64,000 nucleotides of DNA, taken from an uncultured Veillonella sp. GTDB taxonomy: Bacteria > Bacillota > Negativicutes > Veillonellales > Veillonellaceae. This document shows, piece after piece, positions 35,120 to 38,754 of this stretch. The position numbers were made by a program, and so were the translations under genes. The stretch lies in assembly GCA_963518725.1 (NCBI GenBank), contig CAUQLO010000001.1, positions 2,131 to 66,130 on the forward strand, given 5' to 3'. Numbering within the stretch: the stretch's first letter is position 1; every line of letters starts with the position of its first letter. The notes under the pieces are model-generated. The model was not told where the DNA came from, ran no database searches, and saw only the letters and a program-made list of their open reading frames with translations.

Positions 35120-35764
35120 ATGTTAACAGGATATACATTAGTATTTATCAAATTAACTCTTGGTATCTTAGCCCTAATTTTACAAATGAACTTGATGGGC
35201 AAGGGCAATTTGGCACCAAACTCAGCGTTGGACCAAGTGCAAAATTACGTCCTAGGGGGTATCATTGGTGCTGTTATCTACAGTGAAAGTATCGGCATCT
35301 TGCAATTCTTTCTAGTCCTCATCGCTTGGACTATCGTGGTGATGGGGCTGCGCTTTCTTAGCGCTCATGTACGATGGATTAAGAGCCTCATTGATGGGCG
35401 TCCAAGTATTGTCATTGATCGGGGACAGATTCGCGTGGGTGAATGTTTAAAGCGAGGCCTTCGCGGTAGTGATTTGCAGTTGAAACTTCGCAGCGCAGGT
35501 GTGACCCTCGTCAGTGATGTGCGCCGTGCGGTGCTTGAACAGAATGGTCAATTGACGCTAGTCATGAATGGTGACGAGTTAATCCGGTACCCTGTGATTG
35601 TAGATGGCGTTGTAGATCCAGATATTCTAGATTTAGTCGATAAAGATATGGCTTGGCTGGAAGAAGAAGTGCGAGACCAGGGATATTCTATCAGAGATAT
35701 TTATGTGGGAGAATACTCCAAGGGGAATCTTATTCTGCATCCTTATGAAGTGCGCAGAGGATAA
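35120..35764 (+). CDS. DUF421/YetF-family membrane protein
   Basis: GKGNLAPNSALDQVQNYVLGGIIG, AVLEQNGQL. Confidence 0.82.
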   Translation: MLTGYTLVFIKLTLGILALILQMNLMGKGNLAPNSALDQVQNYVLGGIIGAVIYSESIGILQFFLVLIAWTIVVMGLRFLSAHVRWIKSLIDGRPSIVIDRGQIRVGECLKRGLRGSDLQLKLRSAGVTLVSDVRRAVLEQNGQLTLVMNGDELIRYPVIVDGVVDPDILDLVDKDMAWLEEEVRDQGYSIRDIYVGEYSKGNLILHPYEVRRG

Positions 35765-35769
35765 TACCA

Positions 35770-35798
35770 TTGTATTTTAGGATAGAATGGTGTATACT
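35770..35798 (+). promoter_or_regulatory. sigma70 promoter of the putative antitoxin RNA
   Basis: TTGTAT-17 bp-TATACT with no + strand ORF before the terminator. Confidence 0.65.
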
Positions 35799-35804
35799 TG
35801 GAGT

Positions 35805-35874
35805 AGAAAGATATAAGAAGTTAGAGCATTCTTTCATAAGCTCAAAAAAAGGACGGTGGCAGCCGTCCTTTTTT
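35805..35874 (+). ncRNA. putative type I antitoxin RNA (par RNA II-like)
   Basis: Carries GAAGTTAGAGC (35817-27) and CATAAGCTCA (35835-44), direct repeats of the toxin start region; ends in the bidirectional terminator. Confidence 0.72.
35844..35874. terminator. bidirectional terminator shared by toxin and antitoxin
   Basis: A7-GGACGG-tggcag-CCGTCC-T6. Confidence 0.85.
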
Positions 35875-35878
35875 CTTT

Positions 35879-35995
35879 CTATTTTCTATTCTTGTAATAC
35901 TTCAGAATTGCATACGTTAAGAAATTAACAATCAATCCTTGCAGAATAGGGGTCAGAAAGTGACCAGATAATAATGAAGTTAGAGCCTCGCACAT
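35879..35995 (-). CDS. Fst/Ldr-family type I toxin, 38 aa (MCEALTSLLSGHFLTPILQGLIVNFLTYAILKYYKNRK)
   Basis: Strong SD GAAAGGAGGTG; single TM helix with TPILxG and basic tail; not in the ORF track (<60 aa). Confidence 0.78.
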   Translation of the reverse strand: MCEALTSLLSGHFLTPILQGLIVNFLTYAILKYYKNRK

Positions 35996-36000
35996 AAACT

Positions 36001-36041
36001 CACCTCCTTTCATTTAAAGAGGGTACTTAAAGTATAGCACA
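36001..36041 (-). promoter_or_regulatory. toxin extended -10 promoter and SD-sequestering 5' hairpin
   Basis: Minus strand TGTGC-TATACT, then ACCCTCTTT-aaat-GAAAGGAGGT. Confidence 0.6.
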
Positions 36042-36069
36042 TTTTGTGATAGAAAGGGGGTATAAAGTC

Positions 36070-36098
36070 TTGAATAGAAAGGGAAAAACATGTATAAT
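36070..36098 (+). promoter_or_regulatory. ffs promoter
   Basis: TTGAAT-17 bp-TATAAT. Confidence 0.7.
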
Positions 36099-36121
36099 AA
36101 TAGGGTAATAGCATTGGAATA

Positions 36122-36234
36122 TGGCAGTTCTATGGGGCTTGTGCAAGGAGAGCCTGTGAACCATGTCAGGCCTTGATTGGAGCAGCATTAAGCGGTAACT
36201 CTCTTGTGCCACGAGGAAACCTATAGGGCTGTCA
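36122..36234 (+). ncRNA. ffs: signal recognition particle RNA (small, 4.5S type)
   Basis: GTGAACCATGTCAGG...AGCAGCATTAAGC helix-8 core in a long terminal stem; conserved position upstream of dnaX. Confidence 0.92.
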
Positions 36235-36251
36235 GATTCGAGTGCTATAGT

Positions 36252-36303: not shown

Positions 36304-38754
36304 ATGAGTTATTTAGCCTTATATAGACGATGGAGACCAAAGCAATTTACAGATGTTGTGGGACAACACCATGTATCGGATACATTGCAACGAGCCATTC
36401 GAGAAGATAAAGTGGCCCATGCCTATTTATTTGCTGGTCCTAGAGGGACGGGTAAAACGAGTATGGCGAAGATATTTGCACGTGCTATTAACTGTGAACA
36501 AGGACCTACGGATACACCTTGTGGTGTTTGTGAATCATGCCAACAAATGTTGCAAGGACAAGCCTTAGATGTTATCGAAATCGATGCGGCATCCAATCGT
36601 GGTATCGACGAAGTGCGTGCTTTGCGAGAACAGGTGAACTTCTTACCTGTAGTAGGTCATAAAAAAGTGTTCATCATTGATGAAGCTCACATGTTGACGA
36701 ATGAAGCCTGGAATGCGCTGTTGAAAACTATCGAAGAACCGCCCAAACATGTGATGTTTATCTTTGCCACCACGGAATCGGAAAAATTACCGGTTACCAT
36801 CTTATCTCGATGCCAACGCTATACATTCCGCCGTATCACAGCGAAAGATATTACGGCCCATTTATTGCATATTGCCGAGCTCAGCGATATATCGCTAGAC
36901 CCAGCGGCGGCGCAGGTCATTGCAGTCCACGCCGATGGGGGCTTGCGAGATGCGTTGAGTATCTTGGACCAATGTTCAGGCATGACATCGGAGACCATCA
37001 CGGCGCCACTAGTAGAAACCATGATTGGCTTGGTGAGTAAATCTTGGGTATTAGATATGGTGGATATACTGAAAGCTGGTAATGGTGCAGCTTTGTTGCA
37101 AGCTGTGGATGAAGCCTTACAAATGGGGCGGGATGCACGGCAAATTGTAACGGCTTTAGTAGAACATTTGCGAGCTATGATCGTAGCAAAAGTATTGCCC
37201 GATGCAGAAGAATTGTTGGCTTACGACACCCATAAAGAGCGGTTGTTAGAGCAAACTAATGCGGTGGCAATAGAAGAGATTGGGCGATATATCAATGTGC
37301 TACAAGCGGTGCAGAATAACGCCAAACAAGTGGAGAACCCTCGTGTCATAGTAGAAATGGGATTACTTTCACTACTGCAATTAGGGGGCGGGTCCTATCA
37401 AACTTTGGAAGGCCGATTAACGACGGTAGAGCGCTTTGTAAATCGCCAAGAAGATGTATTGCTCCATAAACTTTCAGAGTGGGCAGAACAACGACCAGTG
37501 GCACCCGTAGCGGAAACGATGGCACAACCAGAATACACATCGACGGTAGGCGCCACAGTAGACGTCATCGGCGATGATAGGGGTCCGATTCCAGACATCA
37601 TGGAAGACATGCCTACAAAACAGGCGTTTTCTGCGATACCGACGGCACCGTCGGGGCAAGCGCAAACAGGTACAACAGAGGCATCCAAAGGTATGCGCTT
37701 AGGACCGTCAGCAAAGCAAACATTGCCACCTACGGTGAAGCAAATGTTGCCACCGCCGGGCAAACAAATGACACCACCTTCGGTGAAACAACCGTTGCCA
37801 CCGCCTAAAGCGGGGGCAGGGTTAAGCCTAGGGGCAACTGTGAAAACCAAGGCCCCATCGCAAGAGGTACAAGTGGGACAAAACATCGTGAACCCTCATG
37901 AATATAGCACGATTTTTGCAAACGTGATAAAATGGTTGAGAGGTCATAATTGTGGGTTATTACAGGCTATGTACCAACAAGGCAAGCTCGTCTATTTAGA
38001 CCAAGAGCGGGCTGTATTGGTGTTTTCCACAGCCGTGGCAGTGCCTATTTTGACCCAACCACGTCATATGCAGGATGGTAGCAGAGCCTTTCAACAGGTA
38101 GCGGGTCATGCAGTGACGGTGGAACCGATGGATAAGAATGATCCACGGGTGCAAGCCTATGTGAAAGCGGCCACTGATGGCACAGCACAACCGGCACAGG
38201 CTACGAGCAAGCCTGTCACACCAACGGCACAGGTAACACAAACACCTGTCACACCGCCGGTACAGGCAACACAAACACCTGTCACCCCGGCGGTGAAAGA
38301 ATCTGCTCCGCAGGCGATGGCTAGTGTGGTGTCACCGATGGCGGAGGTTCCTGTAGCGACAATGCCTGTAGAGGAAAAACAACCAGTTGTGGAGCCTGTA
38401 AAAAAAGCTCCGACTACAGAGGAAACAGGCGTTCAAAAACCGCAGTATGTAGAAACTGCGGAGCCCGTAAAACGATCGAAAAAGGGCGCTGGCAGCGCCC
38501 CTACCAATGCGGAAGGCATCGTTGATGATTTTCTCACAGTCTATGAGAATCCAGAAGCGGTATTAAACCCCTATTATGAAGAGGAAACAGCAGGACACGG
38601 AGGGACAGATATACAAAAGTTACCAAAGTGGAACTCTGCAGAGGCTAGTGATGAGGAAAAAGAAGATTCACTCATTTATGATGCATTACAACACATGGAA
38701 GCCCATGGGTATGATATTTATGTAGAAGAAGTAGACGAAACGTCTAAGGATTAA
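36304..38754 (+). CDS. dnaX: DNA polymerase III subunit gamma/tau with long Pro/Thr-rich linkers
   Basis: MSYLALYRRWRP, GPRGTGKT, zinc motif, IDEAHML, SRC. Confidence 0.95.
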   Translation: MSYLALYRRWRPKQFTDVVGQHHVSDTLQRAIREDKVAHAYLFAGPRGTGKTSMAKIFARAINCEQGPTDTPCGVCESCQQMLQGQALDVIEIDAASNRGIDEVRALREQVNFLPVVGHKKVFIIDEAHMLTNEAWNALLKTIEEPPKHVMFIFATTESEKLPVTILSRCQRYTFRRITAKDITAHLLHIAELSDISLDPAAAQVIAVHADGGLRDALSILDQCSGMTSETITAPLVETMIGLVSKSWVLDMVDILKAGNGAALLQAVDEALQMGRDARQIVTALVEHLRAMIVAKVLPDAEELLAYDTHKERLLEQTNAVAIEEIGRYINVLQAVQNNAKQVENPRVIVEMGLLSLLQLGGGSYQTLEGRLTTVERFVNRQEDVLLHKLSEWAEQRPVAPVAETMAQPEYTSTVGATVDVIGDDRGPIPDIMEDMPTKQAFSAIPTAPSGQAQTGTTEASKGMRLGPSAKQTLPPTVKQMLPPPGKQMTPPSVKQPLPPPKAGAGLSLGATVKTKAPSQEVQVGQNIVNPHEYSTIFANVIKWLRGHNCGLLQAMYQQGKLVYLDQERAVLVFSTAVAVPILTQPRHMQDGSRAFQQVAGHAVTVEPMDKNDPRVQAYVKAATDGTAQPAQATSKPVTPTAQVTQTPVTPPVQATQTPVTPAVKESAPQAMASVVSPMAEVPVATMPVEEKQPVVEPVKKAPTTEETGVQKPQYVETAEPVKRSKKGAGSAPTNAEGIVDDFLTVYENPEAVLNPYYEEETAGHGGTDIQKLPKWNSAEASDEEKEDSLIYDALQHMEAHGYDIYVEEVDETSKD
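37714..37809 (+). repeat. 4 x 24-bp imperfect coding repeat in dnaX
   Basis: KQTLPPTV/KQMLPPPG/KQMTPPSV/KQPLPPPK. Confidence 0.75.
38212..38295 (+). repeat. about 2.5 x 33-bp coding repeat in dnaX
   Basis: CCTGTCAC units start at 38212, 38245 and 38278 (PVTP..Q.TQT). Confidence 0.8.

Follow-up and report, generated by a model that had tools for sequence, protein, structure and literature searches.

A predicted par-type toxin-antitoxin module with a Trp-less Fst/Ldr-like peptide adjacent to the gene for SRP RNA in a Veillonella genome

Introduction

The par locus of the Enterococcus faecalis plasmid pAD1, in which RNA I encodes the toxin Fst and RNA II is the antitoxin, and chromosomal par homologs have been described previously (PMC7472228, PMC4147584). 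According to the first of these accounts the proline and glycine of Fst are reported to be essential for toxicity, the direct repeats DRa and DRb are poorly conserved, two par systems present together do not disturb each other, and the U-turn of the terminator loop is not universal. SprA1/SprA1AS, encoding PepA1, and SprA2/SprA2AS of Staphylococcus aureus are chromosomal par homologs whose antitoxins act in trans on the toxin start region, and the paralogs are described as free of cross-regulation (PMC6393315); because it is reported in both PMC7472228 and PMC6393315, the insulation of paralogous modules is already known.

A par/Fst toxin from a diderm Firmicute has been in print since 2010, because VparDRAFT_0721 of V. 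parvula is listed as an Ldr/Fst toxin by Fozo et al. (PMC2887945, supplementary row 890 and alignment). Since, in addition, Fst models match many Negativicutes, the occurrence of Fst in such a host, which an initial annotation of the DNA described here had inferred, is not new, and the Veillonella module adds no bacterial group to the range of par systems. Here we describe its organization, the relatives of its peptide, and the variation among its orthologs and paralogs.

Results

Organization of the yetF-ffs module

The DNA analysed, referred to throughout as the window, is a 64,000-nucleotide stretch from an uncultured Veillonella sp. (assembly GCA_963518725.1, contig CAUQLO010000001.1, positions 2,131 to 66,130). 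The description of the host as a diderm Firmicute is correct, since the source genome encodes an Omp85 protein and all 20 of the 20 named loci encoding relatives of the peptide are from Veillonella. DUF436, DUF3290 and yetF/DUF421 lie to the left of the module and ffs and dnaX to its right (Table 1), and a terminator scan finds none between the yetF stop codon (35764) and 35845, leaving the yetF operon with no terminator upstream of the module. The initial annotation had placed here, back-to-back with ffs and with divergent promoters, a 38-residue minus-strand ORF with a Shine-Dalgarno (SD) sequence, one membrane helix and a basic tail, a 5′ UTR that folds over the SD, a convergent promoter, a shared terminator and two complementary boxes, and each of these elements was recovered.

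Table 1. Positions of the module and its neighbours in the window.
Feature	Position	Strand	Basis or remark
yetF/DUF421 gene, upstream neighbour	35120..35764	+	PF04239 and PF20730
Antitoxin promoter TTGTAT-17-TATACT, predicted	35770..35798	+	sequence; conserved pattern
Predicted antitoxin RNA, RNA II-like, ~70 nt, ends inferred	35805..35874	+	open leader plus terminator
Box a, antitoxin copy, DRa-like	35817..35827	+	same as 35976-86; pairs with codons 4-7 of the toxin
Box b, antitoxin copy, DRb-like	35835..35843	+	pairs with SD spacer and AUG
Shared bidirectional intrinsic terminator	35845..35874	both	13 pairs, A-tract and T-tract
Toxin ORF, 38 aa, no Trp	35879..35995	-	membrane helix with PxxxG (P16-G20), basic tail
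Box a target in toxin mRNA	35976..35986	-	11/11 identical to 35817-27
Box b target in toxin mRNA	35994..36002	-	SD spacer and start codon
5′ stem-loop sequestering SD, 5′-SL-like	36001..36024	-	predicted transcript starts at stem-loop foot
Toxin promoter, predicted, extended -10 TGnTATACT, no recognisable -35	36031..36039	-	sequence
ffs promoter TTGAAT-17-TATAAT	36070..36098	+	divergent from toxin promoter
SRP RNA (ffs), neighbour outside module	36106..36249	+	RF01854, 73.5 bits, cut-off 60

A functional link to ffs was considered and rejected, as other genes lie upstream of ffs in five of five sister-genus genomes; most copies of the module in the source genus lie away from it. The SRP RNA, about 140 nt long, covers only positions 75-238 of the 256 in the large bacterial SRP model and thus lacks Alu-like ends, and DnaX (window 36304-38754) is an 816-residue protein with a long Pro/Gln/Thr-rich C-terminal region.

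Both convergent promoter motifs, predicted from sequence to give the toxin mRNA and the antitoxin RNA, are present in all 38 intact modules compared (see below), with the pattern TTGT[A/G]T-17-TATA[C/A]T on the antitoxin side and TGn-TA[T/C]ACT on the toxin side in 38 of 38. The -35 hexamer of the antitoxin promoter matches the consensus at only three of six positions, and a consensus promoter scan did not list it. In data consulted for expression, three contig sets have no piece covering 35704-36043 and one raw-read run, sampled at about 1 in 100, gave no read there, which bears on expression in neither direction. The toxin SD (GAAAGGAGGTG, 36011-36001 on the minus strand) is covered by a 7-bp hairpin (CCUCUUU/AAGGAGG, -7.5 kcal/mol, z -2.0), which is weak when taken alone because 7 of 200 shuffled sequences fold as well. 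A local SD hairpin of -5.9 to -11.8 kcal/mol is nonetheless kept in 38 of 38 modules, and conservation lends more weight both to it and to the antitoxin -35, the weakest single elements of the module. In the full mRNA of this copy the SD core is paired with probability 0.87; in the full-length folds of the five class-D modules the hairpin is sparsely populated (0.00-0.13). An additional in-frame ATG at 36013, which would give a 44-residue ORF, lies inside the hairpin loop, is not preceded by an SD and is not conserved.

The predicted toxin and antitoxin transcripts overlap only within the terminator, the toxin ORF ending at 35879, outside the antitoxin, and the terminator stem is near-identical in sister-genus Fst modules. 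Its loop reads CUGCCA in the toxin mRNA, contains no U-turn (YUNR) and is variable among orthologs: at window positions 35853-35864 the corresponding loops of 19 loci (L001-L019) are TGGCAG in seven, the reverse complement in nine and a third form in three, and the occurrence of both orientations suggests an inversion between the stem arms.

The 11 identical nucleotides of box a form an exact match that extends no further, and this 11-mer occurs only twice in the window; an 11-nt common word is found by chance in 10 of 3000 window pairs of the same geometry. Over 35835-44 and 35993-36002 box b agrees at nine of ten positions, with the mismatch giving a G.U pair in the RNA duplex. The boxes are complementary, as had been proposed, to early toxin codons and to the SD spacer and AUG, and pairing of the antitoxin leader with the toxin start region is calculated at -33.1 kcal/mol, beyond the best (-26.8) of 1000 shuffles (-11.9 +/- 2.9). 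No Rfam family matches the antitoxin RNA at its gathering score, and the matches at E values up to 10 fall far short of the gathering scores and are driven by the terminator alone.

With pAD1 par, as described, the module shares convergent promoters, a shared terminator, an antitoxin lying outside the ORF, a pair of direct repeats spanning the start region, an SD stem-loop and a PxxxG helix. It differs from pAD1 par in its very short 5′ UTR (~29 nt). The folds show no separate upstream helix (5′-UH, which shields the 5′ end of the mRNA in pAD1 par), the predicted mRNA start being the foot of the SD hairpin, and no conserved U-turn was found; the locus is also chromosomal, and its toxin has 38 residues and a basic tail, where Fst-pAD1 has 33 and an acidic one. 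In the Ldr/Rdl systems the Rdl RNA is described on the 5′ side in a hok/sok-like arrangement (PMC2887945, PMC7472228), whereas control here is of the par type, from the 3′ side. TxpA/RatA-type and Clostridioides difficile type I antitoxins are described as overlapping 3′ into the ORF or a long 3′ end (PMC8594479), unlike the overlap here, which is confined to the terminator.

Relationship of the peptide to Fst and Ldr

The minus-strand ORF 35995-35879 encodes a 38-residue peptide, P0001 (MCEALTSLLSGHFLTPILQGLIVNFLTYAILKYYKNRK), in which one hydrophobic helix leads into a charged C-terminus, as in the Fst/Ldr superfamily. The most hydrophobic 19-residue window spans residues 13-31 (mean 1.71), and the AlphaFold2 model is a single helix over residues 2-36 (pLDDT 83). 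Its PILQG is the PxxxG form of the superfamily motif P/D/S/T-x-x-x-G, with the G present in 25 of 25 and the P in 22 of 25 peptides of the clade to which P0001 belongs (alignment A1), and all 25 lack the Trp that the superfamily conserves in the column after the helix, where P0001 has Ala and the prototype Fst-pAD1, as described, has Val. The initial annotation had noticed the missing Trp and had called the toxin divergent with a longer N-terminus; the divergence is borne out, as the peptide is Trp-less and falls below the Fst/Ldr cut-offs, but its N-terminus is of ordinary length for Veillonella Fst and for Ldr, with the Pro at position 16 in P0001, 15 in the V. parvula peptide and 17 in LdrD.

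P0001 matches no family in Pfam, NCBIfam or PHROGs, and the suggested search with Fst and Ldr models did not identify it, since no curated cut-off is passed (NF033608 and PF13955 for Fst, PF13940 for Ldr). The two Fst models find nothing in the source genome, and NF033608 finds nothing in 24 other genomes of the source genus; the latter model matches in 35 of the 62 genomes of the sister genus (above the cut-off in 31 of 101 genomes) and in 11 of 201 sampled across the class Negativicutes. Below threshold, PF13940 is matched by nine of the 25 clade members (best E 0.018) and NF047374 weakly by three (best E 0.063).

The relationship becomes visible through nine Fst-type peptides of the sister genus (alignment A2), all nine of which match NF033608 (32.6 bits for the first member, cut-off 26). 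Profile alignment of A1 with A2 gives a probability of 94.7%, and of A1 with a single peptide found by NF033608 91.7%, a comparison that avoids the one A2 row itself found with A1. Searched against the PDB, A2 finds PepA1 and LdrD; A1 gives one chance match, does not find PepA1 directly and reaches it only by way of A2. With the A2 profile P0001 scores 12.7 bits, above all of 3384 hydrophobic background ORFs (from which those containing LQG were left out to remove family members) and 200 shuffles, and 14 of the 25 A1 members exceed all background ORFs and 22 all shuffles. The three best ESM Atlas matches of P0001 are Ldr clusters (0.86-0.88), which at under 0.9 are a lead only. Because the sister-genus peptides bridge the two groups, P0001 is, by these profile comparisons, a diverged Fst/Ldr relative that has kept PxxxG, has lost Trp and lies below every curated cut-off.

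The sequence of VparDRAFT_0721 is that of a sister-genus peptide, and this peptide and the sister-genus NF033608 members resemble P0001 and its module in bacterial family, module layout, terminator stem, length, an LAP-I/L core and a basic tail, with profile matches of 92-95%; they differ in keeping Trp, in having mostly PxxxA/S, in lying at another site and in usually being single-copy. PepA1 has the chromosomal location and basic tail in common with P0001, which in contrast has no Trp, lacks the cysteine of PxxxGC and has a longer N-terminus. Peptide length and Pro position are shared with enterobacterial Ldr (PF13940).

By profile, the Trp-less clade is found in 17 of 18 other source-genus genomes and in none of 67 genomes of the largest sister genus. 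Among 1.84 billion representatives the profile picked out 11 proteins, each belonging to this clade, and none of the eight clusters of the clade that were looked up has a functional name. The module has no match among phages, a single 38-nt chance match among plasmids, and none in 590 candidate stretches of viral contigs. Tblastn matches at E 100 were noise; the weak order-wide profile matches G039, G074 and G175 were dropped because a scan of them revealed no SD-led peptide, and G114 is a Trp-bearing Fst-type module. Genomes of another Negativicutes family contain canonical Trp-bearing Fst modules (loci L144-L160) with par layout and mostly TTG starts, with up to eight Fst model matches in one genome. 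Another par-like module of the sister genus (L135:481-573) encodes a 31-residue clostridial Fst-type peptide that has no relation above background to the Trp-less clade.

Alleles and decay at the orthologous site

A DNA search of 41 genomes gave a match in 24 of 24 other genomes of the source genus and returned 30 loci, of which 20 span the module, including one with a deletion (L020); four loci at contig breaks and six covering only ffs or its end are left out of the ortholog counts. The toxin is intact in 14 of the 20, with six copies of an allele A (including this window) and eight of an allele B, which agree in the terminator and over the final two thirds of the ORF and differ in the first ten codons. 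In each of the 14 intact orthologs box a of the antitoxin switches with the toxin allele. Three variants of box b occur, and its nine pairs are kept in all 14 (12 Watson-Crick throughout, two with one G.U), such that the ORF and both boxes, whose conservation in relatives had been set as a test, are either kept or co-varying across orthologs.

The antitoxin unit is kept at 20 of 20 orthologous loci, and the toxin start has been lost at six: the start codon is absent in one, the SD and head are replaced by other DNA in four, and they are deleted in one. Among the four loci with a replaced head the antitoxin type is not fixed, being A at two and B at two. In a tree of dnaX one strongly supported pair (100/100) joins an A locus and a B locus, which points to exchange of alleles at the yetF-ffs site; only this pair is used, as the tree is mostly unresolved, with eight of 15 inner branches open.

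Insertions lie directly before the antitoxin promoter at four of the 20 loci: a type I restriction-modification operon with a RhuM-family gene, between yetF and that promoter, at L141:987-8274 and L142:997-8462, and an MFS gene plus purB at L140 and L143.

Paralogous modules and specificity classes

Twenty of the paralogous places listed by the DNA search contain 24 further intact modules, which with the orthologs gives 38 modules and 30 distinct peptides, and a terminator, promoter and cognate boxes accompany each of the 38 intact toxins. Since the genomes compared are close kin, many of them draft or metagenome assemblies, these figures are counts and not independent trials. When the 31 distinct leader/target pairs are placed in six classes, set by the toxin N-terminus and not by the antitoxin, cognate duplexes average -34.4 kcal/mol (range -40.2 to -25.8) and non-cognate duplexes -16.0. 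In 29 of the 31 cases the strongest partner belongs to the same class, and in 23 the cognate partner is itself the best or shares first place; E and F are poorly separated classes, with E antitoxins binding F targets at -27.3 kcal/mol on average.

A tRNA-Ser(GGA) gene is present in six of the 20 paralogous regions, and the second intact module of the source genome (C13:34483-34596) lies beside one. This module and the second one are predicted to be insulated from each other, with cognate energies of -33.1 and -36.1 kcal/mol and crossed energies of -11.0 and -14.2. Within C13:34240-34900 the second module is flanked by two toxin-less antitoxin units, orphans with their best matches (-36.1 and -30.7 kcal/mol) in toxin classes D and E, both absent from the source genome. 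Seven further orphan antitoxins occur at one paralogous locus in other genomes. Of 53 antitoxin-like units in a scan that misses L014, L016 and the C13 orphans, 42 are paired with an intact toxin (40 recognised by pattern and two by hand) and 11 are not; every intact toxin examined had its cognate antitoxin. A decayed antitoxin-terminator remnant in the source genome (C70:5255-5345), with a best target of only -14.9 kcal/mol, follows purB, a site that hosts class C modules in other genomes.

Discussion

The reading put forward in the initial annotation is strengthened by two results, the co-variation of the boxes with the toxin and the homology of the peptide to Fst by way of the sister-genus peptides, and the locus is very probably a working par-type type I toxin-antitoxin module. 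Its architecture can be read directly from the DNA, as can the co-variation and the decay that affects the toxin side alone; that both RNAs are transcribed, the toxin repressed and the peptide toxic is inferred. By analogy with pAD1 par (as described in PMC7472228), the nascent toxin mRNA would hide its SD in the 5′ hairpin, and the ~70-nt RNA would pair through the complementary terminators and through both boxes, covering the SD spacer, the AUG and the first ten codons, so as to block ribosome loading. Were the antitoxin RNA lost or outnumbered, the peptide would be made, enter the inner membrane and stop growth, and the sequence-specific boxes would let several copies of the module coexist. 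Most probably the module acts as a selfish addiction element, multiplying within the genus through duplication and the exchange of alleles and stabilising the variable DNA next to it, a role suggested by the insertions found right before the antitoxin promoter at four of 20 loci.

The same antisense control could instead govern a non-lethal small membrane regulator, acting for example on a transporter or on SRP-dependent insertion. Such a role would fit a peptide that reaches no model cut-off and has no Trp, as well as the position back-to-back with ffs and the statement in PMC7472228 that no phenotype is known for the deletion of chromosomal par loci, but we consider it improbable: the residues reported essential in Fst are kept, most copies lie away from ffs, and the antitoxin persists at every orthologous locus although the toxin start is lost at six of 20, as expected if the unchecked peptide is harmful. 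It is very improbable that the module was once active and that this particular copy is silent or decaying. The dead toxin genes at six of 20 loci, the further toxin-less remnants in the source genome and the lack of a clear -35 in the toxin promoter would all be in keeping with a silent copy, but here the SD, start codon, frame, hairpin, boxes, promoters and terminator are all intact and match other intact alleles. Finally, the antitoxin might be simply the 3′ end of the DUF436-DUF3290-yetF transcript, with the hairpin as operon terminator and the boxes as remnants of a duplication, which the missing upstream terminator and a weak -35 overlooked by the promoter scan would allow but which is extremely improbable, since the promoter-box-terminator unit persists with other genes inserted upstream (restriction genes at two loci, MFS plus purB at two), recurs at unrelated sites and has boxes that track the toxin through six classes. 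With a par-type module, read-through from yetF may add antitoxin-containing RNA.

It is also conceivable, if unlikely, that the par modules of this Veillonella lineage constitute a self/non-self system in which specificity cassettes are exchanged at set chromosomal positions and orphan antitoxins, left over once the toxin is lost, are retained as an RNA memory that would guard the cell against incoming modules of matching type, a form of anti-addiction. As part of the same reading, a Trp-less toxin of Ldr length under par-type control would be a natural Fst-Ldr intermediate. Simple decay, in which the toxin is of necessity lost first, accounts for the orphans equally well.

What appears to be new, as judged from the sequences, is a Trp-less clade missed by current models, the exchange of alleles at a single chromosomal site, and orphan antitoxins whose matching toxins the genome does not encode. 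Searches of main texts found no paper on the clade or its RNA side, and the T1TAdb paper does not name Veillonella in the part of its main text consulted (PMC8594479). The clade would add to the type I toxins of human-associated Veillonella a group missed by Pfam, NCBIfam, PHROGs and Rfam. The natural series of six classes, two alleles, toxin-dead loci and orphans is of more use than the single locus and permits direct tests of how specificity can shift in an RNA antitoxin and its target without passing through a lethal intermediate, and of whether orphan antitoxins protect against related modules. Elsewhere in the source genome, short hydrophobic ORFs lie behind strong SD sequences at C9:17473, C14:25638 and C5:11622, and these may encode additional type I toxins from different families.
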